From: Chloroflexota bacterium
Lineage (GTDB): Bacteria > Chloroflexota > UBA6077 > CF-72
Length of the DNA stretch: 64,000 nucleotides
Reading direction: 5' to 3'
Assembly (NCBI GenBank): GCA_035309865.1
Contig: DATGER010000134.1
Span: forward strand, 5,331-69,330
Made by a program: the position numbers and the translations under genes. Below are positions 10,501-26,813 of the stretch, one piece after another. Under the pieces are notes generated by a model, which saw only the letters and a program-made list of their open reading frames with translations, was not told where the DNA came from and made no database searches. Within the stretch, counting starts at the first letter, position 1. Each line of letters begins with the position of its first letter.

Positions 10501-11313
10501 GATGCAGAGCAGGATGTCCTGAGCGGGGGCCTGATGCTGCAGGGCGTAGTGGGTGTCGTTGGTCACGACCAGCGGGATGCCCAGTTGCTGGTGCAACTCC
10601 AGCAGCCCGGCGTTGACGACCTGATCGTCGGGATTGCCGTGGTCCTGCAGCTCGAGGTAGTAGTCCCTGCCGAACACTTCGCGGTACCAGCCGGCCGCCT
10701 CGCGAGCCCGATTCGGGTCACTGTCGAGGATGGCCCGCGAGGGTTCGCCGCTGTAGCACGCGCTGAGCGCGATCAACCCGGCCGCGTGCTCGGCAAGCAG
10801 CGCACGGTCGATGCGCGGCTTGTAGTAGTAGCCCTCGAGGCTGGCGCGCGACACCAGCTTGATCAAGTTGTGGTACCCCTCGAGGTTCTTGGCCAGCAGC
10901 ACCAGGTGGAAGTAGTTGCGGTCCTGATTGCCAACCTTGTCGGACATGCCGCGCGGACTGACGTACGTCTCGACGCCGAGGATGGGCTTGATACCGGCGG
11001 CTTTCGCGTGCGAGTAGAAGTCGACGGCGCCGTACATGTTGCCGTGGTCGGTCAACGCGACGGCACGCATGCCGGTGCGCTTGACCGCGTCGACGACGTG
11101 TCTGACGGGCGACAGGCCGTCGAGTAGCGAGAACTCGCTATGGACGTGCAGGTGGACGAAGTCGTGCGTCGGCTCGGCCGGCGGTGGCTCAGGGCCCGCG
11201 GGGGCGGGTTCATCTTCAACCGGGTCGTACGCCTGGAGATCGCCCTCAGCGTCCTCGTCCCACCAGGCGCGCACATTCTCGAGCGGGTCAGCAACAGTCA
11301 CGGCTGGCACCAA
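7483..11313 (-). CDS. dnaE: DNA polymerase III subunit alpha
   Basis: 1276 aa. PHP domain HLHVHSEFSLLDG, polymerase core (MPDIDMDF, GLLKMDFLGL), HhH and OB-fold regions. Has an acidic N-terminal extension and a Gly/Ser/Ala-rich linker before the C-terminal domain. Confidence 0.95.
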   Translation of the reverse strand: MVPAVTVADPLENVRAWWDEDAEGDLQAYDPVEDEPAPAGPEPPPAEPTHDFVHLHVHSEFSLLDGLSPVRHVVDAVKRTGMRAVALTDHGNMYGAVDFYSHAKAAGIKPILGVETYVSPRGMSDKVGNQDRNYFHLVLLAKNLEGYHNLIKLVSRASLEGYYYKPRIDRALLAEHAAGLIALSACYSGEPSRAILDSDPNRAREAAGWYREVFGRDYYLELQDHGNPDDQVVNAGLLELHQQLGIPLVVTNDTHYALQHQAPAQDILLCIQTNSNFEDPKRMRMQPEAFYLKSPAEMWQLFGHLPDALRNTVAIAEQCDVQLEFGRLSFPTLDHLVPAGQTPQEFLTRTCNEGLVRRYGAGLTAEHRQRLQYELEVVEKTGFAAYILFVWDFVAWARQRGIPCGPRGSAAGSIIVYCLGIADLDPVKYGIAFERFLNPERIQMPDIDMDFADDRRDEVIQYVIDKYGSDRVAQIITFGRLQARAAIRDVGRALDLPLNEVDRVAKLIPQIPIGLKIADALEQSQELKTLYDGQPHIQRLIKTAQSVEGVARNAGTHAAGVVVADQPLINYVPLQRATRGESAMTQYDMKVLDKIGLLKMDFLGLANLTMLSKALDNVKARTGIELDLARLPLDDATTYAMLSRGETRTVFQLEGGGMTRSVQELQPSTLGHLAALVALYRPGPMAHIPSYIARRDGREPPVPPDPSLADVLEETYGIIVYQDQVLEVVRKLAGYSLGQADVLRRAMGKKDREVMAHEGPKFMQAVLSHGYSANTAERVWELLQPFAGYAFGKAHAYCYALVAYQTAYFKANYPAEWFAAVLSTIAGDTEKVVGVVGECRRVGVALLPPDVNASALAFRVEASGGIRFGLAAVKNVGEGAVEQIVSERLASGPYTSLEEFCRRQDLHTINKRVIESLAKCGALDALGQREALLDSKRLDSAIAAAQIDQKAASTGQVSLFDLVGGVESLAPKPVVAAVPLDAASGPSQSRERALWEKEVLGFQFGDHPFMQAAAWLANDLSHDTSQLTAELSGERVKIAGLVTGVRRIVTKTKSQMAVLTLEDLHGTIEAVVFPRVYERGIELWREDAILIVEGKVDTRSDRPQLVVDRADEWSGPPHGKTAPPLRLGPAASDGVPRQPANGTHVVGQAGPTAANVGASSGGGPNVGASSGVAREDGPLPAPAPARRVLRVVIPRGEDDNACVRVLEQLHGLVERFPGSDEIRLVLHDRSGGRIELAGTDILVRDTPDLESQVRTLVGAENLVVDSSATDGSLVRR

Positions 11314-11405
11314 TGGTAGGGCTCAAGCCAGGGTCCGAGGCGGACTTTGTGATGGCCCGGCCTGACTCGGCCGTCGCGGGCGGGTTTCGGCCGCGCGGCC
11401 AGGAC

Positions 11406-11943
11406 TCAGTCCAGCGGCACGCGGACGCTCGCGCCCTGGAGCGCGAGCGGATTGGACAGCGAGAAGAACGCGCCAACGGTGCGCACGTAGTGGGCCCGCT
11501 CGAACGCCGCCGGCTCGGCGACGTGCACCTGACTCATGCTGCCGCGCAGCTGCGCGCCCGTCGCCGCGAAGTCCGCCGCAACGCGGGTGTAGAGGATCGC
11601 AATCCAACGCAGCGGCAGGCGCAACGCCGCACCATCACCACTCCGACTGATCATCGGACGGTCGATGCGATCTCGGTCGGTACGTCGTGGGCGAACCAAC
11701 GTCGCGCGCCGACACGGCGTGCGCCGCCCGGATGTGCCCGCCGACGATCCAGCCGGGGTGACCCAGGACCTCGACTTTCCCTGCCGCCTCGACCGTGCTC
11801 CGCATGACGCCATCCGACGCGTACATGCCGCCCGCCAGCGCGAACGAGCGCGAACTCGATGAATTTGGCGCGGACGACGCCAGCGGCGATCAGCCGTCCG
11901 TGACCCCTGTGCCCGGCTGGGTGGTAGTCTCGGTGCTCGACAT
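11406..11943 (-). pseudogene. Unidentified gene apparently broken across three reading frames (or several small overlapping ORFs)
   Basis: High third-position GC switches frame. ATG 11943 is followed by an in-frame TGA at 11890-11892. The same frame continues as ...FALAGGMYASDGVMRSTVEAAGKVEVLGHPGWIVGGHIRAAHAVSARDVG to about 11690. Coding signal then moves to the frame ending at 11406 (...LRWIAILYTRVAADFAATGAQLRGSMSQVHVAEPAAFERAHYVRTVGAFFSLSNPLALQGASVRVPLD). No family recognised. Confidence 0.35.
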
Positions 11944-12016
11944 AGCCGTATTTGTTAGCTGATCGTCGCCGATTCGTGGCGCCGCGGCAAGTAGGCTTCA
12001 CAGGGAGCACCTATCT

Positions 12017-13666
12017 ATGGCCACCACCTCCAATCAAGTCAGCCATGCGCGGCTCACCCAGTTGCCGGCCTGGCGCGCGCTTTCCGAGCATTTCGGCCAG
12101 ATCAAAGACGTGCATCTGCGCCAGCTGTTCGCCGACGACCCGCGGCGTGGCGAGCGACTTGCGACCGAAGGCGTCGGGCTGTACCTCGACTATTCCAAGC
12201 AGCGTGTCACCGACGAAACCCTGCGCTTACTGGTGCGTCTTGCCGCGGCCCGCGGATTGAGAGCGTCCATCGACGCGATGTATTCGGGCGAAGCGATCAA
12301 CACCACTGAAGGCCGCGCCGTCCTGCACACCGCGCTGCGCGCGCCGCGCGACGCGCACATCCTGGTCGATGGCCACGACATTGTGCCTGACGTCCACGCC
12401 GTGCTCGACCGCATGGCCGCGTTCGCCGAACGCGTGCGCCGCGGCCAGTGGACCGGTCACACGGGCAAACCGATTCGCAACGTGGTGAATATCGGTATCG
12501 GCGGGTCGGACCTCGGCCCGGTGATGGCCTACGAAGCGCTGCGGTACTACGCGCAGCGCGACCTGACCTTCCGGTTCGTTTCGAACGTCGACGCCACCGA
12601 CTTCGTGGAGTCCACCCGCGATCTGGATCCGGCGGAGACGCTGTTCATCGTGGTCTCGAAGACGTTCACCACCCTCGAAACGATGACCAACGCGAACTCC
12701 GCTCGGGCCTGGACCGTGGCGGCCCTGGGCAGTGAAGCGGCAGTTGGGCGGCACTTCGTCGCGGTGTCCACGAATGCCGAAGGCGTCCGTGAGTTCGGCA
12801 TCGACGCCGAGAACATGTTCGGCTTCTGGGACTGGGTTGGTGGCCGCTACTCGATGGATGCGGCCGTCGGTCTGTCGACCATGCTGGCGGTCGGCCCGGA
12901 GGCGTTTCGTGAGCTGCTCGCCGGCTTTCACGCGATGGATGAGCACTTCCGGACCACACCCCTGGCGGAGAACCTGCCGGTGCTCATGGGCATGCTCGCG
13001 GTCTGGTATGCGGACTTCTTCGGCGCGCAGACAGTCGCCGTGCTGCCGTATGACCAGTATCTGAAGCGATTTCCGGCGTACCTGCAGCAGCTGACGATGG
13101 AAAGCAACGGCAAGCGCGTCACGCTGGACGGAGCGCCGGTCGACTACGAGACCGGCGCCATCTACTGGGGCGAGCCTGGCACCAACGGGCAGCACTCGTT
13201 TTACCAGCTGATCCACCAGGGCACCCGGCTGGTGCCGTGCGACTTTATCGGCTTCTACCACGGCGTGAACCCACTCGGTGCACATCACGACCTGCTGATG
13301 GCCAACGTCTTTGCCCAGAGCGAAGCGCTGGCGTTTGGCAAGACCGCCGAGGAAGTGCGCGCCGAAGGGACTCCGGACTGGCTGGTGCCGCACCGCACGT
13401 TCCCGGGCAACCGACCGTCCAGCACGATCCTGGCCGACCGGTTGACGCCGCACACCCTGGGCGTGTTGGTGGCGCTGTACGAGCACAGTGTCTTCGTGCA
13501 GGGCGCCATCTGGGACATCGACTCGTTCGACCAGTGGGGAGTGGAGCTGGGCAAGGTCCTCGCGCAACGCATCGTGCCCGAGCTCTCGGCGTCCGTCGAG
13601 GCGCCACTCGCCCATGACTCATCAACGGCCACGCTGATCCGCCGCTATCGCCAGCACCGCGCATGA
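12017..13666 (+). CDS. pgi: Glucose-6-phosphate isomerase
   Basis: 549 aa. [24 protein letters not shown] and [18 protein letters not shown] motifs. Confidence 0.95.
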
Positions 13667-13765
13667 CCCGCACACAGCGCCCTCCCTGTGCGCAGCTCGG
13701 TGTCACGTTGTCGAAGGACGACCAAACATGACCCTCCCTCCGGGGAGTGAGCGAAGCGATGCGGG
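13667..13765. repeat. Inverted pair of the dispersed repeat core
   Basis: Degenerate left arm cccgcacacagcgccctccct (13667-13687) and right arm ggggagtgagcgaagcgatgcggg (13742-13765), between pgi and the next gene. Confidence 0.5.
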
Positions 13766-13781
13766 CGGGCCACGGCCGCGC

Positions 13782-14165
13782 ATGACCAGAGTGGCCCTGG
13801 CGCCCTGGCGGCTCGCCGTCGCCGTGCTGCTCGCGCTCGCGGTCCTGGCGCTGATCATCGCGGTGGCGGTGTGGCTGGCGATCGCCCTGGCGGTTGTCGG
13901 CGCCATCCTGTGGCTCAACCTGGTGCTGATCCCGCGCCTGGCGGCCCGCCTGCACGCGCCGCGGCTGGTGCTGGAACTGATCCTGCTGCCGCTGTTCGCC
14001 GGCGCCGGCTGGGCCATCGGCGGACCAACCGGCGCCGGGCTCGGCGCCACTGCCTGGCTGGCCGGTATCGCCGTGCCGCGGCTAATCGGCCGCCGCCTGC
14101 GCGCCCGTCAACGGCGTGCCGCACCGCCGGGCAGGATCATCGTCGTCGACCGTCTCACCGACTGA
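13782..14165 (+). CDS. Small hydrophobic membrane protein, unknown function
   Basis: The ORF track starts at 13728, but the first 18 codons are the repeat element. Internal ATG 13782 gives MTRVALAPWRLAVAVLLALAVLALIIAV..., with 3-4 predicted TM helices. Confidence 0.5.
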   Translation: MTRVALAPWRLAVAVLLALAVLALIIAVAVWLAIALAVVGAILWLNLVLIPRLAARLHAPRLVLELILLPLFAGAGWAIGGPTGAGLGATAWLAGIAVPRLIGRRLRARQRRAAPPGRIIVVDRLTD

Positions 14166-14982
14166 GCGCCGCCTGTCGGCGGACGGCCTCGCGCCAGCGG
14201 AACCACAGGATGGCCAGCCCGGCGACTCCAACAGCCCCCTGGCTGAGTAAGACGTTGAGCTCCTGACCGGTCATGATCCCGACAACTGGCGGCAGACCGT
14301 CCCACAGCCCGTGCAACACGACCACCGTGAGATACGCGCCAACCACCGCGCGGTCGAGCCGAAATCGGCTGGGGCGACTCTCGCGGAACATGACGCTTGC
14401 GAGGATCGCGGTCCACGTGCCGTGTCCGACCGGTGACAGCAGCCCGCGCAGCAACGTGACCAGCACCAGGGCGCTCAGGCTTCCACCGCTTTCGATGAAT
14501 GCCGTGAACACGTAGCCGCTGCTCTCCAGCGCGGCGAATCCCATGCCGGCTGCGCCGCCCAGGATGATGCCGTCGATCTCAGCGTCATGGCGGTGATGAC
14601 GGGCGACGACCAGGACGCCCAGAATCTTGGCGAACTCCTCGATCAACCCCACCTCGAATGCGGACAGCACCGTCAACCGGCGTATGAACACCGGTTCGAG
14701 CAGCGCCGCGGCGAAGACGCCGAGTACGCCACCGTAGAAGAACGCGCGTGCCGTACTGACCAACGTGACCCGGCTCAGGTGCCGGCGTTCATAGAAAAAC
14801 GCCACGTAACTGACCGGCACCACGAAATTGCCGATCAGTGCCGCGGTCGGGAACAGATTCGGGTTGCCAGTCACGGCAAACACCACCACGGCCAGGACGA
14901 ACAGCCCCAGCCCGACGAGCAAGATACGCCACCAGCCACTGGTGCCGGACGCCACCGGAGAGGCGACGACAGCGGGGCCCAT
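14155..14982 (-). CDS. PrsW family intramembrane metalloprotease
   Basis: Multiple TM helices with GLIEEFAKILG (EExxK) and SPVGHGTWTAI (HxxxT/N) PrsW signatures. The ORF extends to 15078, but that overlaps the divergent neighbour's start. ATG 14982 or 15042 is more plausible. Confidence 0.8.
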   Translation of the reverse strand: MGPAVVASPVASGTSGWWRILLVGLGLFVLAVVVFAVTGNPNLFPTAALIGNFVVPVSYVAFFYERRHLSRVTLVSTARAFFYGGVLGVFAAALLEPVFIRRLTVLSAFEVGLIEEFAKILGVLVVARHHRHDAEIDGIILGGAAGMGFAALESSGYVFTAFIESGGSLSALVLVTLLRGLLSPVGHGTWTAILASVMFRESRPSRFRLDRAVVGAYLTVVVLHGLWDGLPPVVGIMTGQELNVLLSQGAVGVAGLAILWFRWREAVRRQAALSR

Positions 14983-15076
14983 TACGATGCGATCACCTGC
15001 GACACGGGAGGCCGGCTGACAGGATAGCGCCGCGGAACGCATCGGCGATCGCCAGGTGGAGTAAAAGAACAGCACC

Positions 15077-16417
15077 ATGGCACTTGCAGCTCACCCGACG
15101 TCGCGCCTGGACCGCGCGACCCTTGGCATTCCCGATGAGCGGGCGCGCTATCTCATCCAGTGTGAAATCGTGCTCAAGAAGATCGACGCACTCTTGCTGC
15201 CGTTGATGCGCCGGCACCAGATCGACATGTGGATCACGCTCGACCGCGAGTACAACCCCGATCCATTTGCCGACGAGCTCGCGGGCCAGGGCGGCGTCCG
15301 CAACGCGCACATCTTCTTTGACTCAGGCGACCGCCTGGAAAAGGTGTTCATCTTTTCGCACCCACCCCGGGCGGACCTCGCGCCGCGGCTGTACGACGAG
15401 CTGATCCACTACGGGTACCGACCGGAGGGCCTGCGGCCGTATCTCGCCGACGCCGTCCAGAAGCGTCAGCCGCGGCGCATCGGCCTGAACATGTCGCCGA
15501 CGCTGCCCATGGCCGACGGGCTCACCGTGTCGCTCAAGCGCTACCTGGATGACGCCATCGGACCGGAGCTCGCGGCTCGCGAAGTCTCGGCTGAGCTCCT
15601 GCAGCGCGACTTTCGCACCACTCGCATCCCTGAAGAAACCGCGACGTATCGCACGCTAGTCGAGTGGACGACGGTCTGGGAAGAAGAGGGTCTGAGTCGA
15701 TTGGCAATCACGCCCGGAGTCACGACGCCGGACGACGTGCACTGGTGGTGGCGCGACAAGGCGAAGGAGATCGGCCTCGACATTTGCTCTTTCTTACCCG
15801 GCCTGCGGATCATGCGCAACGGCCAGATCATTGAGTCCAACGACCCGCACACGCCGATCGAAGCGGGCGACTGCCTGAGCATCGACGCCGGCCTGCAGTT
15901 CTTGCACTTTCAGACGGACATGAAGCGCAGCGCGTACGTCCTCCGCCCGGGCGAGACGGCCGCGCCGCGGGGGATGCTAAAGGCGCTCGCGGCGGCGAAC
16001 GCCGTCACCGACCGGCTGATCGCGAACATGCAGCCCGGCCGACTCGGCCACGAGGTGTGGAGTATGACGATGGCCGCCCTGAACGAGGACGGCTACGAGA
16101 CGGCGTATGCGATGGGCAGCGCGGCCGGCCCAACCACGCCGGAGGTCGGCATCTACTGCCACTCCGTCGGCACGTCGGTGCACGATATCGGTGCCCGCAC
16201 GGCGGAGAACAATCCGCATGCCTTCGGCGATCGGGTCGGCTATCCGCTTGCGCTCGACAACTGGTACTCGATCGAGCACCACACTGCGACGCCGATCGCC
16301 GAATGGGACTACCGCACGTTGCGCGTGAACACCGAGGAAGATTCGATGCTGACTGAGCGCGGCATCGAGTTCTTCGTCCCGCGCCAGACGGAGTGGCTGC
16401 TTATTCCGTCGGACTGA
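15077..16417 (+). CDS. M24 family metallopeptidase (Xaa-Pro aminopeptidase/creatinase fold)
   Basis: 446 aa. The C-terminal pita-bread region has IEAGDCLSIDAG, HSVGTSVHD and NWYSIEHH...NTEED metal-ligand-like motifs. Confidence 0.7.
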   Translation: MALAAHPTSRLDRATLGIPDERARYLIQCEIVLKKIDALLLPLMRRHQIDMWITLDREYNPDPFADELAGQGGVRNAHIFFDSGDRLEKVFIFSHPPRADLAPRLYDELIHYGYRPEGLRPYLADAVQKRQPRRIGLNMSPTLPMADGLTVSLKRYLDDAIGPELAAREVSAELLQRDFRTTRIPEETATYRTLVEWTTVWEEEGLSRLAITPGVTTPDDVHWWWRDKAKEIGLDICSFLPGLRIMRNGQIIESNDPHTPIEAGDCLSIDAGLQFLHFQTDMKRSAYVLRPGETAAPRGMLKALAAANAVTDRLIANMQPGRLGHEVWSMTMAALNEDGYETAYAMGSAAGPTTPEVGIYCHSVGTSVHDIGARTAENNPHAFGDRVGYPLALDNWYSIEHHTATPIAEWDYRTLRVNTEEDSMLTERGIEFFVPRQTEWLLIPSD

Positions 16418-16421
16418 GCGT

Positions 16422-16540
16422 CCCGGATCGCTTCGCTCGCTCCGTTGCGATTCTCAAGGGAGGGAAGGTCACGCGCGTCGTGTCACGCACCAGCATGCGG
16501 ATTATCGGTCCCTGAAAGGGAGCGAGCGCAGCGATGCGGC
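16422..16540. repeat. Inverted pair of the dispersed repeat core at a convergent gene junction
   Basis: Left arm cccggatcgcttcgctcgctcc (16422-16443) and right arm gggagcgagcgcagcgatgcggc (16518-16540). About 21 bp of complementarity with 2 mismatches and a ~74-nt spacer. Confidence 0.7.
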
Positions 16541-16555
16541 CGGCGGAATGCTCGC

Positions 16556-17830
16556 TCAGAGGTAGTGAGTGCGTACCGCCCAGGCGCGCAGATCGTCGCG
16601 GAACGCGGGGTGCGCGATGCCAATCAGCGCTTCGGCCCGCTCGCGGATGCTCTTGCCGTGCACATAGGCGACCCCGTACTCGGTGACGATGTAGTGCACG
16701 TGGGCTCGCGTGGTCGTCACCCCGGCGCCTTCGGCGAGCGTCGCCACAATCCGCGAAACGGTTCCCTGCCGAGCCGTGGACGGCAGCGCAATGATCGGCT
16801 TGCCACCGAGCGACAACGCCGCGCCGCGCATGAAGTCCATCTGGCCCCCGACACCGCTGAACAGCTGGGTGCCCATCGAATCCGCGCACACCTGGCCAGT
16901 CAGGTCCACCTCGATGGCCGAGTTGATCGCCGTCATCCGCGCGTTTCGGCGAATGATCGCGGTGTCGTTGGTGTAGTCAACCGGGTGCATCTCGATCATC
17001 GGGTTATCGTGGACCCAGTCATACAACCGCTGACTGCCCATCAGGAATGTGGTGACAATCTTGCCGGGGTGCAACGTCTTGGCGGCGCCCGTGACGACGC
17101 CAGCTTCCACCAGGTCCAGCAGTCCGTCGGCGAACATTTCGGTGTGCACGCCCAGGTCGCGTTTGGTGCGCATTGCCGCGAGGGCGGCATTGGGAATGCC
17201 GCCGATGCCCAGTTGCAGCGTGGCGCCGTCCTCGACCAGGTCGGCGACGTACTCGCCAATCCGCTGCTCGGTGGGACTGATCGGCGCATCGGGGTGGGCG
17301 ACGAGCGGGCAATTCGACTGGACCGCCCAATGGATCTGGTCCAGCCGGATGAAACTGTCGCCGAGCGTTCGCGGCACGTGCGCGTTGACCTGCGCGATGA
17401 CGGTGCGGGCGGACTCCGTCGCTGCCTTCGCGGCATCCACCGATGTTCCCAGCGAGCAATAACCGTGGGCATCTGGTGGGCTGACCTGAATGCAGGCCAC
17501 ATCCAGTGGCAGGGCGCCACTGCTGAAGAGGTACGGAATGTCCGAGAGGAAGATGGGCACGAAGTCGGCGCGACCCTGGTTCACCGCCTGGCGAACATTG
17601 GCGCCGATGAACAGCGCGCGATGCCGCAGGTGCCCATCCATGTCGAGGGCGACATGCGGCGCCGGCCCGTCGGCGTGCATGTGCACAATCTCGACATTTT
17701 CGAGCGTCTGGGCACGCGCCACTAACGCGTTGAGCAAGACGGCGGGCGTCGCCGCGGCGCCATGCAAAAACACGCGATCGCCAGACCGCACGTGCTGGAC
17801 CGCTTCTTCCGCGGACACAAACGCGGTCAT
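16556..17830 (-). CDS. Acetyl-CoA hydrolase/transferase family protein (4-hydroxybutyrate/succinyl-CoA:acetate CoA-transferase-like)
   Basis: Start moved to ATG 17830 (MTAFVSAEEAVQHVRSGDRVFLHGAAATP...). SDIPYLF, HTEMFADG and GGQMDFMRGA motifs. 424 aa. Confidence 0.85.
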   Translation of the reverse strand: MTAFVSAEEAVQHVRSGDRVFLHGAAATPAVLLNALVARAQTLENVEIVHMHADGPAPHVALDMDGHLRHRALFIGANVRQAVNQGRADFVPIFLSDIPYLFSSGALPLDVACIQVSPPDAHGYCSLGTSVDAAKAATESARTVIAQVNAHVPRTLGDSFIRLDQIHWAVQSNCPLVAHPDAPISPTEQRIGEYVADLVEDGATLQLGIGGIPNAALAAMRTKRDLGVHTEMFADGLLDLVEAGVVTGAAKTLHPGKIVTTFLMGSQRLYDWVHDNPMIEMHPVDYTNDTAIIRRNARMTAINSAIEVDLTGQVCADSMGTQLFSGVGGQMDFMRGAALSLGGKPIIALPSTARQGTVSRIVATLAEGAGVTTTRAHVHYIVTEYGVAYVHGKSIRERAEALIGIAHPAFRDDLRAWAVRTHYL

Positions 17831-17840
17831 TGCGGGCCAA

Positions 17841-18305
17841 TCATCGCAACTCGCGGCGTTTGATCTCCTCCAGGTGGTGGCGCGCACCGCGCTGGAGCGG
17901 ACCCGGCAACGCGTCGAGTGCAAAGAACTCGAGCTCCGCGACCTCGCCGGGATCGAGCCGGAACTCGCCGCGCATATCCCGGGTCTGAAATGCAACGCCG
18001 ACGTGGTACACCTCGTCACCCGTGGGGTACGTGTGGAAGAACGCCGGCCCCGAGTAGACCTCTAACGGCTCGAGATCGCCGAGTTCGACGCCGATCTCCT
18101 CGCGGACTTCACGCCGGGCGGTCTGCTCGAATGTCTCGCCGGGCTCCATGGAGCCGCCGATCAGGTCCCAGGAACCGTCATCGGTGCGGCGATGGAGCAG
18201 GACGCGGCCGGCGTGGTCGCGGATCGCGACGCACGCTCCAGGCACGATCAGCGCGCGCTGGCCCACTGCGCGACGCAGTTCCTCCAGGTAGCCGCCGGCT
18301 GGCAT
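17841..18305 (-). CDS. NUDIX hydrolase
   Basis: Nudix box GGSMEPGETFEQTARREVREEIGVE. Confidence 0.85.
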   Translation of the reverse strand: MPAGGYLEELRRAVGQRALIVPGACVAIRDHAGRVLLHRRTDDGSWDLIGGSMEPGETFEQTARREVREEIGVELGDLEPLEVYSGPAFFHTYPTGDEVYHVGVAFQTRDMRGEFRLDPGEVAELEFFALDALPGPLQRGARHHLEEIKRRELR

Positions 18306-18310
18306 GTCGC

Positions 18311-19054
18311 TCAGGCCCTCAGTCCGCTGGCGTAGGCTTCGACCTGGTCGCCGAACGAACGCCAGTCCGTGACCACGAAGTCAGCGTCCGTTTCGATCCG
18401 GCCATCGGTGCCGGGCACGTACCGCGCCGAGTGCAGCCCCGCGCGCCGAGCGCCCTCCACATCCAGCTCCTCCAGGTCACCAACGTGCAGCGCCTCGCTC
18501 GGCGTCACTCCGCCGAGTTGCGCCAGGGTGTGCGCGAAGATGCTCGGGTGTGGTTTCGACACGCCGAACTCGTTCGAGAACACCGTGAGCTCGAAGTACT
18601 CGAACAACCCGTGGCGCTTGAGGACCTCGCGCAGGATTTGCCCGCCAACCATGCCGGTGTTGCAAATCACCGCTAGCCGGTAGCCGGCCCGCTGCATCGC
18701 GTGGACGGCGGCGTGGACGTGGGGCATCGCCTCCGGCACTGGCTCCAGGGTCATGTCCGCGAAGACTTGTTCGACGAGCTTGTAGGCGATCATGCCATCC
18801 GGGATCCCGAGCTCGGCTGCCAGGATCGCCCAGCGGCCTTGCGGCCCGACGTCGATCAGGGTCTCGCGGGCGTCGTCGTCGACCCGTCGGAGGCTCCGCT
18901 CGACGGCGTCTGCCAACTCTTCAGCCGTGCACGCATACCCGCCCCTTACGAGCGCCGCCTGCAGCCGTGCCACCCGCAGCGCCAACCGATCGGGCGTCAT
19001 TTCCCCGTCAACCAGGGTGCTCCAGAAGTCGAACGTCACTGCCTTTAGTGTCAC
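18311..19054 (-). CDS. HAD family hydrolase (subfamily IA-like)
   Basis: VTFDFWSTLV (DxD-type motif I variant), ICNTG, SKPHPSIF and HVGDLEELDVEGA motifs. Confidence 0.75.
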   Translation of the reverse strand: MTLKAVTFDFWSTLVDGEMTPDRLALRVARLQAALVRGGYACTAEELADAVERSLRRVDDDARETLIDVGPQGRWAILAAELGIPDGMIAYKLVEQVFADMTLEPVPEAMPHVHAAVHAMQRAGYRLAVICNTGMVGGQILREVLKRHGLFEYFELTVFSNEFGVSKPHPSIFAHTLAQLGGVTPSEALHVGDLEELDVEGARRAGLHSARYVPGTDGRIETDADFVVTDWRSFGDQVEAYASGLRA

Positions 19055-22662: not shown

Positions 22663-23517
22663 TCAAGCGGCCGCCTGACACGCGGCGAGTGCCGCCTGCG
22701 CGTCGGCCAGGCGCTGTGCGTCAGTTACCGCGTTCTCAATCAACCCCTGCGCTTCCGTCAACAACGCTTGCGCGTTAGCCGCAAGCCCGCTCGCCAGCCC
22801 GTTCGAGGCCGTTGTCGACAGGGCAAACTGCTGGTTGAGCTCCTGCACCCCGAGGCCCTGTGCCCATGCCTGGGCGGCTGCGGCGTACGCACCGCCGTCG
22901 ATTGATGGATCCTGATACATCGCGCTGAGCTGGGTGAGGTCACGCGCTATTTGCGTTGCAAGGGGAGTGAGCTCGGGCGCCATGCCTGCCAGGATGGTCG
23001 ACAGGTTCTGGATTTGATCGAGCATTCCGCTGACAACAGCGTTGTCTGCTATGAGCTGAGCCGCGACGGTATCCGCCCTGGCTTGAAGCACGTCGCAGCT
23101 GGCGGTGACGCACACTCCATTCACGCAGGTCTGGTTCTGACTCGACTGGCAGCAGGTGTCCCCACAGCACGTGCTCCCGGCTGGACAGCAAGCCCCGCCG
23201 TTCGCCAACCCGTTGCCGTGCGCACTGGGGCAGCACACGTCGTCCGGGCCGCAACACACCGCGAGGCCACAACACACCGACTGCGGACCGTTGTTGAAGC
23301 AGCAGTGGACATCGCCTGGACAGCAGTGGGTGGAGCCAGCACTGCAGCACTTGCCGTTGGAACACGTTCCTCGGTCGCCGCAATCGGCCGCGTGAACGGT
23401 TCGTGGAAACGCGGAGAACATACTGGCGGCGACAACGCCCAGCGTGATCCGGAGTGCCCGGTGACGTGGCATTGGCCCCGCGAGGGCGCGTGAGAACTCA
23501 TCGAACAGAACGCTCAT
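22663..23517 (-). CDS. Secreted cysteine-rich (granulin-like CC-repeat) protein with an Ala/Gln/Leu-rich helical C-terminal domain
   Basis: Signal-like N-terminus (...RHRALRITLGVVAASMFSAFPRTVHA/ADCG). Residues 46-141 hold 23 Cys including nine CC doublets (C-x5-C-x4-CC-x6-CC-x5-CC-x8-CC-x4-CC-x5-CC-x13-CC-x5-CC-x3-CC-x7-C-x4-C-x4-C, with THCCPGD). A ~140-aa low-complexity helical tail follows, ending ACQAAA. ATGA overlap with the upstream gene; an alternative start is 23472. Confidence 0.7.
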   Translation of the reverse strand: MSVLFDEFSRALAGPMPRHRALRITLGVVAASMFSAFPRTVHAADCGDRGTCSNGKCCSAGSTHCCPGDVHCCFNNGPQSVCCGLAVCCGPDDVCCPSAHGNGLANGGACCPAGSTCCGDTCCQSSQNQTCVNGVCVTASCDVLQARADTVAAQLIADNAVVSGMLDQIQNLSTILAGMAPELTPLATQIARDLTQLSAMYQDPSIDGGAYAAAAQAWAQGLGVQELNQQFALSTTASNGLASGLAANAQALLTEAQGLIENAVTDAQRLADAQAALAACQAAA

Positions 23518-24605
23518 ACCGTGGCTCGAACCACAGGCGGATGTTGCATGGATTTCACGGCGTTGGACTGGCGCACGGTTTGCGTAAACAGACCGCGCAG
23601 CTCGTCAGCGCCGGCAACGACCGGGCTTGCAATCAGCCCATCTGCTCCGATGAGCACCGCGCTCGGCGTGCCAGCGTACTGGAAGATCGTGGCCACCTCC
23701 CGGTCCTTCTGCAGCAACACCTGACTCAGCCCGTATTCACGAGCTTTTTCGCGATTGACCTCGATGTCACCACTGCTGATCAGAACGATGTTGAGTTTGC
23801 TCGATTGTTCACGTTGCCATCGTGCGACCTCCGGCAGCAGCGCCTTACAGGGGCCGCAGCCGGGATCTGAGAACACCAGCAGCAGCGGCCGACTCGACTC
23901 CAGCAAGGCGCGCAGGGTGACAGACCCACCGGTTAGCCGCGGCAGCGCAAAGTCGGGCGCCTGGCTGCCTATCGCAAGCCCAGCGTGCGACCCGTTTGCC
24001 GCACGGCTAGCCGACGCGGGCGTGCCGATCGAAGCCTCCAGAGCTTCGAGCCGCAGGAGCAGCCGTCCTTGCTGGGAGGTGAGGTTGAGGAGCAACCAGC
24101 CCTCCACAAGGATGAGTCCGATCGCTACCACGACGACGGCCGCGGACACCCACACCAGCGGCGTCAGACCTGCCAGCCACAGGCCCGCGTCGAGCCCGGG
24201 CCCCTGCCAGACGATCACGCCGGCCGCGCCTGCCAGCACGCCGTTGCGTACCAGCGTGGACCATTCGACGGGTGCCGAATGCAGGAGCCCGAAACAGTGG
24301 CAGTCAGGGTGTTTCCCGCGCACCAGGTTGAGACCGATAGCAGCGGCAAATACACCCAGCAGCACGAGCGCACCTGCGCCGGCCCAGCGCGCCGACACGT
24401 TCGCGAGCAGACCGACAGCGACACCCAGCTCTGCAATGGGTAAGCCCCATGCAAGTACGCCGACCAACCAGCCGTCAACGCCAAACTGTCGGAGCGCATG
24501 GCGAGCACCGCTCGGATCCATGAGTTTGGTCGCCCCGGCGACGGCAAACACGACGGCCAGGAGAAGCCTGGCAACCAGCACGCCCTCAAGCATGGAAATG
24601 CTCAC
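23514..24605 (-). CDS. MauE/DoxX-family membrane redox protein fused to a TlpA/MauD-like thioredoxin domain
   Basis: The N-terminal ~135 aa have 4 TM helices and HPDCHCFG (the MauE C-x-C-x-G motif). An extra TM and a coiled segment follow. The C-terminal domain carries APDFALP...LLVFSDPGCGPCKALLPE (CxxC thioredoxin fold). Confidence 0.8.
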   Translation of the reverse strand: MSISMLEGVLVARLLLAVVFAVAGATKLMDPSGARHALRQFGVDGWLVGVLAWGLPIAELGVAVGLLANVSARWAGAGALVLLGVFAAAIGLNLVRGKHPDCHCFGLLHSAPVEWSTLVRNGVLAGAAGVIVWQGPGLDAGLWLAGLTPLVWVSAAVVVVAIGLILVEGWLLLNLTSQQGRLLLRLEALEASIGTPASASRAANGSHAGLAIGSQAPDFALPRLTGGSVTLRALLESSRPLLLVFSDPGCGPCKALLPEVARWQREQSSKLNIVLISSGDIEVNREKAREYGLSQVLLQKDREVATIFQYAGTPSAVLIGADGLIASPVVAGADELRGLFTQTVRQSNAVKSMQHPPVVRATV

Positions 24606-24614
24606 GTCGGGTGC

Positions 24615-25559
24615 TCAATGGACAGTGCGGAGATAGGCGTCAATGGCTCTGAGCTCATCATCACTCCACGTGGCCGAAAACTGGGGCCAGGGCATCATGT
24701 CAGGCGGCAACTGGACTCCGGACGGGTCTGTGCCAGTGCGGATCGTGTTGACAAACTGATCCGTCGACCAGGTTGCCACCAGTGCCACCAGCGACGGACC
24801 GCGTGGCACAAAGGTATTTGTGCCGCCAGTCAGGTTTTGCCCGTGGCACGTGCGGCAGCCCGAGATGTTCAAAAGATACTCGCCATATGTCGCTGTCACC
24901 GCTGCCGGCGGTGCCACCACCGGCGCGGTGGTCGGCGTTTGCGCCGTCATCGGGAGTGCGCCGAAGGCGCCCAGGACTGCTCCCAGCAGGTGCAGCTGAG
25001 TCGGGACGGCAGTGCGTGCGACTGGCGGTTGTGATCGCAGGTACGTGACCAGCGACTGCACATCATCATCCGACATCAGGTGAAAGGTCTCGGCAGGCAT
25101 GATCAACAGCGATCGTCCGTCGGGTGCCACGCCGTCGCGCACCGCGCGAACAATGTCACCGTCGGACCAGCCGGCCAGCGGCCCGGCCGGTGTCAGGTTC
25201 GGTGCGTACAACGTGGCCAGCGGCCCGAGAAAGTCCTCGTTACCGCCGCCGAGCGGGAGTTGTTGCGTCGTCGCATGGCATCCGGAACACAGGTTGGCGA
25301 GATGCTGGCCGCGTGCGAGTCGCTCCGGGCTGGCGGCAATCGGCTGTGTTGCGGCTGGGATGGAGGGCGGACGCTCGAAGCGGTAGACGCCAATCAGCGC
25401 CAGAATCGCCACCAGCGCGAGCACGACGGTTCCCAGCGCCAGAGCGCCGGCGCCGAGCCAACGCAGCACGGCCCCACGCACTCGCCAGGCGCGCGTGGCG
25501 AACCAACCGCCCAGCACGGCTCCGACGAGCAGCCCGGAGATACTGAGGACCAGATCCAT
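24615..25559 (-). CDS. Membrane-anchored diheme c-type cytochrome
   Basis: Two heme motifs, CSGCH and CRTCH, each followed by a distal Met-containing segment (LLIMPAE, DMMPWPQ). N-terminal TM helices. Start moved to ATG 25559 (MDLVLSISG) to avoid overlapping the cupin gene. It resembles the cytochrome c subunits of membrane dehydrogenases. Confidence 0.8.
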   Translation of the reverse strand: MDLVLSISGLLVGAVLGGWFATRAWRVRGAVLRWLGAGALALGTVVLALVAILALIGVYRFERPPSIPAATQPIAASPERLARGQHLANLCSGCHATTQQLPLGGGNEDFLGPLATLYAPNLTPAGPLAGWSDGDIVRAVRDGVAPDGRSLLIMPAETFHLMSDDDVQSLVTYLRSQPPVARTAVPTQLHLLGAVLGAFGALPMTAQTPTTAPVVAPPAAVTATYGEYLLNISGCRTCHGQNLTGGTNTFVPRGPSLVALVATWSTDQFVNTIRTGTDPSGVQLPPDMMPWPQFSATWSDDELRAIDAYLRTVH

Positions 25560-25569
25560 GGGAGTGAGG

Positions 25570-26085
25570 TCAGGACGCTCGCGCGGCCGGCGCACGAACC
25601 TCGATCGGCGGACCTAGCAGTCGACTCCCGTGGTGAGTTCCAATCCTGCCGAGTATTGCCAGGTCTGGCGGACCGTCGAGCTGGTCGAAATACTGTTGCC
25701 GCTCGGCGAAGAATTCTTCGATGCCGCTGGGGACGGCCACGCTGAGCAGGCGGGTCGCGCTCCCGCTCGCATTGGCAAACGCGTGTGGAGTCCCGCGCGG
25801 TATCCACACAAAGGATCCAGTGGTGACCTCGCGCTCTTCGTCACCGAGCTGTACGACGAGTGTCCCTTCGAGCACGTAAAAGGCCTCGTCCATTTCCCCG
25901 TGGAGGTGCAGCGGCGGCCCAGATTGCCAGGGCGCGAGAGTGTCCTGAAAAACACTGAGCAGTCCGGCGGTGTCGGTGGCGTCGGCCTTGACGCCGGGCG
26001 AGACGGTCGGGTTGCGACGAACGTCGCCAGGGGCGAGCACGTAGGCCTGGGCGCGATGGTCGGTGGGGTGCAAAGCGTCGGTCAT
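25570..26085 (-). CDS. Cupin domain protein
   Basis: PPLHLHGEMDEAFYVLEG...WIPRGTPHAF is the two-motif cupin signature. It is the first gene of the four-gene minus-strand cluster. Confidence 0.8.
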   Translation of the reverse strand: MTDALHPTDHRAQAYVLAPGDVRRNPTVSPGVKADATDTAGLLSVFQDTLAPWQSGPPLHLHGEMDEAFYVLEGTLVVQLGDEEREVTTGSFVWIPRGTPHAFANASGSATRLLSVAVPSGIEEFFAERQQYFDQLDGPPDLAILGRIGTHHGSRLLGPPIEVRAPAARAS

Positions 26086-26099
26086 GCCGCGGTTCCCTT

Positions 26100-26146
26100 T
26101 CGTAGACGATATATATTGAGTAGATGTAGACTATATCTGGTAGACT
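26100..26146. promoter_or_regulatory. AT-rich divergent promoter/operator region with GTAGAC repeats
   Basis: 71-nt intergenic region between the cupin (-) and TetR (+) starts. GTAGAC occurs at 26102, 26126 and 26140, GTAGAT at 26120, interspersed with TATATAT / TATATCT. The AT richness stands out sharply in a ~70% GC context. Confidence 0.5.
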
Positions 26147-26156
26147 GAGGCTGTCA

Positions 26157-26813
26157 ATGACCACGCAGACGTGGCGCCGGCGCCAGGCGCTCGAAACGCG
26201 ACGTCAGATCGTCCGCGCCGCCCGCCGCCTGTTTGTCAGCCTCGGCTACGTCGGTACGACCGTCGAGGCGATCGCCGCCGAAGCCGGCGTCGCGGTCCCC
26301 ACCGTGTACAAGGCGTTCGGTACCAAAGCCGCGATCGCGCGCGAACTCAACGACCTGATCGACGAGGAAGCCGGTGTCGCCGCATACACCCAGCGCGTCG
26401 CGCTGGCCAGCCAACCGACGGAGCTGATCGCCGCGGCCGTCGCGTTGAACCTGAGCCTGCATGAACACTGCGGGGACATCATCGAGGCGACCCGCGCAGG
26501 CGCGGCCGTCGACGCTACGCTCGCGCACGTCTACGCCGAAGGCACGCGCCGGCATGACGACGGCATGCGCTCGCTGATCGACAGTCTCCAGGCGTCGGGC
26601 GCGCTCCGCGCTGAGCTGGAACCGGTCCAGGCGGTCGGGTTGCTGTCCAGTCTGTGCGCGCCGGAGGTATTCGCCGAGTTGACCCGCCGCCACGGCTGGA
26701 CCGTGCACAACTGCGAGGCCTGGACGGTCGAAGCGCTGTGCTGGCTGCTGCTGAGACCCGTCGCAACCCGTCGTCATCGGAGCCCGGCTACCCAGCCGCG
26801 GACTGCGCGGTGA
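26157..26813 (+). CDS. TetR/AcrR family transcriptional regulator
   Basis: The N-terminal HTH RRQIVRAARRLFVSLGYVGTTVEAIAAEAGVAVPTVYKAFGTK is a classic TetR_N signature. Confidence 0.9.
   Translation: MTTQTWRRRQALETRRQIVRAARRLFVSLGYVGTTVEAIAAEAGVAVPTVYKAFGTKAAIARELNDLIDEEAGVAAYTQRVALASQPTELIAAAVALNLSLHEHCGDIIEATRAGAAVDATLAHVYAEGTRRHDDGMRSLIDSLQASGALRAELEPVQAVGLLSSLCAPEVFAELTRRHGWTVHNCEAWTVEALCWLLLRPVATRRHRSPATQPRTAR

Follow-up and report, generated by a model that had tools for sequence, protein, structure and literature searches.

In the mau cluster, MauE and MauD, a thioredoxin-fold CxxC protein, are encoded beside MauA, a small exported, disulfide-dense client, which has six disulfides in ~130 residues. 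DsbB–DsbA systems and VKOR–thioredoxin fusions, in which a membrane thiol oxidase is coupled to an extracytoplasmic thioredoxin fold, act as general housekeeping oxidases. MauE was newly proposed as the third bacterial disulfide-forming enzyme. Two MauE proteins, from phyla other than that of the bacterium described here, complemented E. coli dsbB, the active site was described as a periplasm-facing CXC followed by a conserved F-G, thioredoxin-family domain fusions were found in 8.2% of MauE proteins, and no specific natural MauE clients were named outside methylamine dehydrogenase (bioRxiv 10.64898/2026.03.05.709764). Granulin/epithelin modules (PF00396; PDB codes 2JYE, 1G26, and 1QGM) are secreted units in which two single cysteines, a run of four CC pairs, and two further singles follow one another, and they were reported in eukaryotes only (PMC4527844). 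A 64,000-nucleotide stretch of a Chloroflexota genome (contig DATGER010000134.1; the whole stretch is called the window) contained a gene for a protein with an export-type leader and a ladder of nine CC pairs, directly preceded by a gene for a MauE–thioredoxin fusion. On balance, the product is probably an exported modular disulfide-ladder protein that is oxidatively folded by its coupled MauE–thioredoxin partner.

The 284-residue protein was composed of an N-terminal leader, a cysteine ladder, and a helical module (Table 1). Its 24 Cys were located at positions 46, 52, 57/58, 65/66, 72/73, 82/83, 88/89, 95/96, 110/111, 117/118, 122/123, 131, 136, 141, and 280, with the spacing C-x5-C-x4-CC-x6-CC-x5-CC-x8-CC-x4-CC-x5-CC-x13-CC-x5-CC-x3-CC-x7-C-x4-C-x4-C-x138-C. 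A sequence-only reading of the window had proposed an extended granulin-like ladder over residues 46–141 (23095–23382). Its Cys pattern, its coordinates, and its total of 24 Cys were reproduced exactly from the translation of the open reading frame (ORF), and the two motifs that it had singled out, THCCPGD and VHCCF, were both found in the ladder. Judged by recurrence, the cysteines parse better as 22 in the ladder (residues 46–136) plus two outside it, because C141 and C280 recur as the helical module's own pair in other proteins. When C141 was set aside, the ladder read C,C,(CC)9,C,C, which is how granulin reads, C,C,(CC)4,C,C, but for the larger number of pairs. The HCCP and CCPxG motifs and the loops of 3–8 residues between pairs were also shared with granulin. 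However, granulin has four pairs and 12 Cys, whereas the ladder has nine pairs and 22 Cys with other spacings, including an x13 loop of Gly and Asn.

This arrangement was not a by-product of composition, since the layout of singles, pairs, and singles was reproduced in none of 200,000 shuffles of the 96-residue segment, in which the Cys content of 24% was kept; at least nine isolated CC doublets occurred in 23 of them. When the gene was compared with a 63%-identical homologue (locus L001; L numbers denote loci of relatives and P numbers protein representatives), the differences at codon positions 1, 2, and 3 numbered 71, 51, and 117 in the whole gene and 12, 15, and 40 in the ladder. Therefore, it is a real gene under purifying selection. 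An out-of-frame artefact of GC-rich DNA was ruled out by these codon-position statistics together with the homologues.

A word-indexed search of 5.8 billion proteins gave three relatives of the ladder protein, and when 1.84 billion representatives were searched exhaustively with HMMER, 105 matches were obtained at E<=0.001. Among the close homologues (60–95% identity), the ladder Cys were all invariant over the portions covered, which answered in the affirmative the question of the sequence-only reading whether the CC periodicity is conserved. P0001–P0004 and P0006 retained all ladder Cys, T63-H64, H71, the GNG..NGG loop, and the sequence CCPAGSTCCG. No relatives of the nine-pair subfamily were found in 185,579 species-representative genomes. 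The homologue P0001 (95% identical; L003, 4069–5311) diverged at residue 235 and ended early, and another 'gene' was called over the remainder. This truncation, by which the equivalent of C280 is removed, has the appearance of a frameshift that stems from faulty assembly or marks a pseudogene.

When the ladder alone was modelled with AlphaFold from a six-sequence alignment (predicted local distance difference test score (pLDDT) 75.3; predicted template modelling score (pTM) 0.55), a short β-strand was predicted at nearly every CC pair, which would resemble the hairpin strands of granulin. Low confidence was confined to the GNGLANGG loop. The 22 Cys of the ladder would form 11 disulfides. Pfam and NCBIfam scans of the 284-residue protein gave no match, nor did PDB sequence searches with the ladder sequence and the ladder profile.

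The C-terminal module was rich in Ala, Gln, and Leu (37 Ala, 19 Leu, and 17 Gln in the last 143 residues), and AlphaFold predicted five helices over residues 140–283 (pLDDT 70–82), in agreement with the probably helical domain of ~140 residues that had been expected. The module was indeed separate from the ladder: in P0010, P0011, and P0013 it was found with both bracketing Cys behind unrelated N-terminal domains. In these proteins it always started with C-D-x-L-Q and finished with L-x-x-C, which correspond to C141 and C280. Therefore C280, taken earlier for a single extra Cys, is one half of a conserved pair, and C141 and C280 may form an intramolecular disulfide. The N-terminal domains ahead of the module in P0010 (L085, 6001–7197), P0011 (L086, 540–1706), and P0013 were Thr-rich and probably β-rich, and in L085 the start of the helical-module gene was overlapped by the gene of a small secreted protein. 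The helical module gave no Pfam, PDB, or Foldseek match: its PDB sequence search returned only a spurious amidohydrolase (E=0.014), and Foldseek with the whole-protein model returned generic helical bundles only.

The gene directly upstream of the ladder gene encoded a fusion of a MauE membrane domain with a thioredoxin-fold domain, and its stop codon overlapped the ATG of the ladder gene (ATGA at 23514–23517). The partner matched the Pfam models MauE (PF07291; 102 bits against a cut-off of 27), AhpC-TSA (39 bits against a cut-off of 26), and DoxX. In NCBIfam, a partial match to the MauD equivalog reached 47 bits, far below its cut-off of 188.6. The hydrophobic segments of the MauE domain comprised residues 1–30, 46–69, 72–99, and 140–178, and the CHC-FG site was located after the third. 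Thus, both features that define MauE, a domain above the Pfam cut-off and CXC-F-G after the third hydrophobic segment, were present in the partner. The two marks of a thioredoxin-fold oxidoreductase, a CxxC motif and a cis-Pro loop in the AhpC-TSA fold, were present as well, as CGPC and as AGTP (residues 311–314). The partner is probably the dedicated disulfide oxidase or isomerase of the ladder protein.

When compared with the mau cluster, the locus shared the conserved MauE CXC-F-G motif and the placing of MauE and a thioredoxin-fold CxxC protein beside a small, disulfide-dense client predicted to be exported. In contrast, MauE and thioredoxin were fused in the window (relatives often have MauE-Trx-Trx, where Trx is a thioredoxin domain), the client was unrelated to MauA, and the operon lacked MauB, MauG, and other methylamine genes. 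The fusion also resembled the DsbB–DsbA and VKOR–thioredoxin systems in joining a membrane thiol oxidase to an extracytoplasmic thioredoxin fold. Unlike those housekeeping oxidases, the window partner was translationally coupled to one extremely Cys-rich client, and partners of its type recurred beside members of one leader-defined family.

This recurrence was seen in two samples. A thioredoxin-fold gene was located immediately upstream on the same strand in 9 of the 9 loci examined first (the window, L003, L001, L002, L084, L087, L088, L089, and L090, the match of L090 being weak). The upstream gene often overlapped by 4 nt and was often Trx-Trx, with MauE in front where the contig extended far enough. 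The second sample consisted of 49 metagenome loci retrieved by leader-only alignment, 40 of which had at least 300 nt of upstream sequence; Trx or Trx-Trx ended less than 400 nt upstream in 18 of these 40. At five further leader-selected loci, MauE-Trx-Trx or its Trx domains were located elsewhere on the contig. For P0010 and P0011, which have the helical module only, no thioredoxin gene was adjacent. In L108 (778–2018), two leader-bearing Cys-rich genes stood in tandem behind one Trx-Trx gene, and in L120, L122, and L135 a MauE-Trx-Trx gene was located 1–1.5 kb from the leader gene, up- or downstream. The arrangements in these four loci suggest small arrays that share one foldase. The pairing of ladder and thioredoxin genes was strong, not universal, and would fit several paralogues per genome that are served by one foldase locus.

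The leader was shared far beyond the nine-pair subfamily. Its consensus across ~90–95 representatives was [SD]x[LF]-F-D-[DE]-[LI]-[AS]-R-[IA]-L-A-[ST]-P-M-P-R-R-[RQK]-A-L-[RK]-L; with the hydrophobic stretch behind it, it is of the twin-arginine translocation (Tat) type. The twin Arg was retained as PRR[RQK]AL[RK] in 85 of 97 family sequences. The second Arg was lost in ~12% of the leader family (RH or similar), including the window protein, which has PRHRALRI. Accordingly, the window leader did not fit the Tat consensus of consecutive Arg residues in an S/T-R-R-x-F-L-K-like motif before the hydrophobic stretch. The Pfam model TAT_signal matched a single family member (E=0.009) among the 97 scanned. 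The export route of the ladder protein and its cleavage between VHA and AD are predictions from these leader features. The leader segment preceding the twin Arg (family P0012–P0106) was conserved beyond the apparent need of Tat export.

Behind the shared leader, the mature regions were hypervariable, yet nearly always Cys-rich with CC doublets. The exact layout C,C,(CC)n,C,C was found in 21 of 89 family members, with n ranging from 1 to 13, and several members, such as P0019, P0032, and P0064, had n=4, the granulin count, with 12 Cys. Cargo domains were found at the C-terminus of some members: a group XII secretory phospholipase A2 domain in P0068 (333 residues; 46.4 bits against a cut-off of 34), FecR in P0069 (280 residues), and Stig1/MXAN_6577-like repeats behind the same ladder in P0006 (312 residues) and, by sequence inspection, in P0003. 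Cargo domains alone exceeded the cut-offs when 97 members were scanned with Pfam. In the window protein, the helical module takes the place of such cargo. When the window protein and ten members were scanned with NCBIfam, no model reached its curated cut-off, and the sole sizeable match was the sub-threshold one of MXAN_6577-like in P0006 (69.6 bits against a cut-off of 100). MXAN_6577-like and Stig1 proteins (NF041328, PF04885) resemble the ladder in being exported bacterial Cys-rich modules. However, their repeats use single Cys of the CxxCGxC type in place of a ladder of CC pairs, and the window protein has neither domain. Nothing relevant was found in the literature on bacterial or Chloroflexi granulins and on MauE with cysteine-rich clients. 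The ladder family with its shared leader is undescribed, being absent from Pfam, NCBIfam, and the literature searched. The possibility that its members are precursors of ribosomally synthesised and post-translationally modified peptides was rejected on account of the Tat-like leader, the absence of maturase genes nearby, and products of up to 600 residues. In two distant family loci, L087 (1094–1882) and L088 (1537–2796), a gene for a tetratricopeptide-repeat protein followed the Cys-rich gene; the window operon had none.

The following mechanism is proposed. The protein would be produced from a TetR-controlled operon, exported by means of the family-specific Tat-type leader, in which the twin Arg is degenerate in the window copy, and cleaved after VHA. 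Oxidative folding would take place on the outer face of the membrane, catalysed by the translationally coupled product of the upstream gene. Its DsbB-like MauE domain, with the CHC-FG site, presumably hands electrons to quinone, and its thioredoxin domain, with CGPC and Thr-cisPro, would introduce and shuffle disulfides in the fashion of DsbA or PDI. The mature protein would consist of a rod of short β-hairpins stapled by 11 consecutive disulfides and a helical module closed by a further one, C141–C280. Both the disulfide connectivity and the direction of electron flow in this scheme are predicted. The favoured role is that of a stalk or scaffold, stable outside the cell, on which the C-terminal module is presented, because a conserved leader is combined with a hypervariable Cys-rich region and with cargo such as phospholipase A2 XII, Stig1/MXAN_6577-like repeats, and FecR. 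Where members are short, the secreted product would be a mini-protein made up of the ladder itself.

Several observations weigh against this proposal. About half of the leader-bearing genes in the leader-only scan had no MauE or thioredoxin gene on the contig. When the ladder model was compared with the PDB by Foldseek, which is weak on small disulfide-rich folds, no similar fold was found, and the top match (E=5) was a TNFR/EGF-like module. Tat-type leaders normally carry proteins that are already folded, which is awkward for a domain that needs 11 disulfides. The active site of the partner resembles that of thioredoxin or PDI/DsbC rather than that of DsbA, which has CPHC with Val-cisPro: CGPC with Thr-cisPro is the type of classical reducing thioredoxins and of TlpA/CcmG reductants. 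In addition, an earlier proposal by Alvarez et al., as cited in the MauE preprint, made MauE a reductase (bioRxiv 10.64898/2026.03.05.709764).

The sequence-only reading was supported in part. The layout C,C,(CC)n,C,C, its conservation, the export-type leader, and the predicted strands stood, whereas no significant Granulin profile, PDB, or Foldseek match was obtained. It would have been given up if a missing Granulin hidden Markov model (HMM) match had coincided with a missing hairpin ladder; the first half occurred, as hmmscan against Pfam Granulin (PF00396) gave no match to the window protein even at E<=10, and on the second AlphaFold placed a short strand at nearly every CC pair. Most probably, the protein behaves as a lengthened hairpin stack of the granulin type. 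That it belongs to the granulin family, or is homologous to it, is unproven, as two defining features, a profile match and the 12-Cys motif C-x5-6-C-x5-CC-x8-CC-x6-CC-x5-CC-x4-5-C-x5-6-C, were absent from the window sequence; its 22 Cys differ from the motif in pair number and spacings.

A claim of ancestry, compatible with the proposed mechanism, is that the ladder is a true granulin homologue, ancient or horizontally transferred, which grew from four to nine CC pairs with the same fold and connectivity. We regard this as unlikely, although several comparisons pointed towards it. The singles/pairs/singles layout is identical, including members with exactly 12 Cys (P0019, P0032, and P0064), and the HCCP and CCPxG motifs are present; these CPxG..CC motifs may, however, merely reflect tight hairpins and thus convergence. 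When the window subfamily was aligned with granulin modules by hhalign, the score was 23.7 (probability 39%), compared with 14.7–16.1 (2–3%) for reversed controls, and the four-pair members scored 26.8 (78%) against 17.0 (8.6%) for the reversed control. Family sequences also scored higher forward than reversed against the granulin HMM (Wilcoxon p=2e-11), so that the likeness is a weak, direction-dependent profile similarity. A weak sub-threshold Pfam Granulin match, often the sole one listed, was obtained in 7 of 10 members (three at E<=1.2, best E=0.024), but these ten had been pre-selected with an in-house granulin HMM and their matches are therefore biased. In the unbiased scan of 97 family members, Granulin gave three matches, all below the cut-off of 20.9 bits (best 15.3 bits, E=0.024), and Dickkopf_N matched no fewer of the 97, with four. 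Moreover, the in-house HMM scored the window ladder at -6.5 bits, which was equalled by 10 of 300 shuffles with fixed Cys; the HMM itself was valid, since a profile of the same human modules plus carp granulin (A5) recovered Granulin A from the PDB with 84 bits. Although granulin structures are thus present in the PDB, none was returned by the ladder sequence and profile searches or by Foldseek, and the modules are reported from eukaryotes only (PMC4527844). Further differences from granulin are the bacterial (Chloroflexota-type) host, the Tat-like leader, and the dedicated MauE–thioredoxin partner.

A second alternative is thiol-rich metal binding or storage, metallothionein-like or for copper, in which a TlpA-like thioredoxin would keep the Cys reduced outside the cytoplasm and the protein would perhaps be exported by Tat with its cofactor loaded. 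This alternative, which the sequence-only reading had also offered, is improbable. Metallothioneins and copper storage proteins (Csp) share with the ladder a very high Cys content and CC doublets. Four of the points in favour also count against the disulfide reading, namely the invariant His beside CC pairs (THCC and VHCC), the Tat-type family leader, although the window copy has lost the twin Arg, the reductant-like CGPC/Thr-cisPro motif, and the reductase proposal for MauE. The cytochrome c and cupin genes within the operon would suit metal binding as well. Against metal binding, MauE acts as an oxidase in E. coli (bioRxiv 10.64898/2026.03.05.709764) and the operon contains no reductant supplier of the CcdA/DsbD type. 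The Cys count after the leader was even in 78 of 88 family members (binomial p=3e-14), for which metal clusters offer no rationale; P0001, one of the ten odd-count exceptions, has lost its C-terminus. Successive Cys in the family were separated by no residue 481 times, by one residue (CxC) only 24 times, and by two (CxxC) 40 times, and the commonest non-adjacent gap was five residues. The cargo domains phospholipase A2 XII and Stig1 are classical disulfide proteins. None of the marks of metallothioneins or Csp, which are a dominance of CxC and CxxC, no parity, a cytosolic location, and a Cys-lined bundle, was found; the ladder protein differs from them in its leader, even Cys counts, rare CxC and CxxC, and predicted β-hairpins, and copper storage of the Csp type in the helical domain was excluded, as that domain holds just two Cys. 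On these sequence grounds, metal binding is far less likely than disulfides: a fully oxidised protein is favoured by the MauE–thioredoxin partner, the even Cys parity, the rare CxC and CxxC spacings, the leader for export, and cargo domains of the disulfide type.

That the ladder is a redox partner of MauE–thioredoxin and cytochrome c, storing disulfides and thiols outside the cell or relaying electrons there, is very improbable: it does share an operon with both and carries very dense, potentially redox-active Cys, but the pair is not always accompanied by the cytochrome c (L084 has none), the hypervariable mature lengths and diverse cargo fit a client or effector rather than a conserved relay, and we know of no precedent for such a relay.

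Table 1. Features of the ladder operon in the window, with the basis of each assignment
Feature	Position	Strand	Basis
Gene of the cysteine-ladder protein (predicted exported), 284 aa (leader, ladder, and helical module)	22663..23517	-	ORF list; homologues P0001–P0006
N-terminal leader, residues 1–44: FDEFSRALAGPMPRHRALRI; hydrophobic stretch, putative cleavage between VHA and AD; Tat-type, second Arg of the twin replaced (RH)	23386..23517	-	
Cysteine ladder proper, residues 46–136, C,C,(CC)x9,C,C, 22 Cys	23110..23382	-	Pattern; invariant Cys; AlphaFold strands; layout of relatives
Helical module, residues 141–280, bracketed by C141 and C280, Ala/Gln/Leu-rich	22678..23097	-	AlphaFold; recurrence in P0010, P0011, and P0013
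MauE membrane domain fused to thioredoxin-fold domain, 363 aa, directly upstream of the ladder gene	23514..24605	-	Pfam
CHC (residues 102–104) followed by FG, MauE domain	24294..24302	-	Motif KHPDCHCFG, residues 98–106
CGPC active-site motif, residues 250–253, thioredoxin domain	23847..23858	-	Sequence motif
Dihaem cytochrome c, hydrophobic N-terminal stretch	24615..25595	-	Pfam Cytochrome_CBB3 and Cytochrom_C, two stretches each
Cupin-domain protein, first gene of the operon	25570..26085	-	Pfam Cupin_2, 64 bits
Promoter-like site of the cupin gene, located upstream, TTGACA-16-TATAGT	26130..26157	-	Consensus match only, 11/12
Divergent TetR-family regulator	26157..26813	+	Pfam TetR_N, 49.8 bits

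The remaining genes of the operon are given in Table 1; those of the cupin and of the membrane-anchored dihaem cytochrome c have the same orientation as the MauE–thioredoxin and ladder genes and stand with them behind a single promoter-like site. One promoter-like site of the quality listed was found, compared with 0.3 expected in shuffles. The order of the cupin and cytochrome c genes was the same in L003, whereas the cytochrome c gene was absent from L084; the TetR gene was adjacent in both of these loci. The cytochrome c may serve as an electron acceptor.

The genes around the ladder operon were ordinary chromosomal ones, encoding DnaE, Pgi, PrsW, GlnA, and RidA. When GlnA was used for comparison, the nearest relatives were metagenome-assembled genomes (MAGs) of soil Chloroflexota and of the Dormibacterota type. 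The two nearest genomes had 93% (an uncultured Chloroflexia MAG) and 91% identity, and synteny with them was lost directly after glnA. When the window was compared with these nearest genomes (L004 and L005), a region of ~7 kb (11306–18339), flanked by the dnaE region on one side and the HAD-hydrolase/glnA region on the other, was present in the window only; it contained an unassigned 426-residue ORF in addition to Pgi, a PrsW protease, and an M24 peptidase. Synteny with L004 and L005 also stopped at ~21563, just short of the RidA gene and the ladder operon. An Rfam scan of the window found no RNA families.

The ladder protein is a variant of granulin-like ladders combined with DsbB/DsbA-like or MauE/MauD–client systems, and the family itself is undescribed. 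With 12 disulfides predicted for a mature chain of 241 residues, it makes high demands as a client, and it is genetically linked to its partner; if the proposal is true, it would give the newly proposed MauE disulfide pathway natural clients; because the pairing recurs across the leader-defined family, the pathway is directly testable there. The combination of a conserved leader and a hypervariable mature region is reminiscent of conotoxin genes. Soil Chloroflexota-type bacteria may possibly, as a tentative extension, carry a large undescribed arsenal of secreted mini-proteins and stalks of granulin-like hairpin-stack architecture, with 1–13 CC pairs, a conserved leader, and a dedicated MauE-Trx(-Trx) foldase. 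Should its fold and connectivity prove to be those of granulin, the family would be the first of the granulin type in prokaryotes, and either the source of the eukaryotic granulin module or a case of striking convergence. The family indicates that the granulin-type layout of CC pairs can be lengthened or shortened in nature one pair at a time, which bears on how hyperstable disulfide scaffolds may be designed and on how the granulin fold arose.

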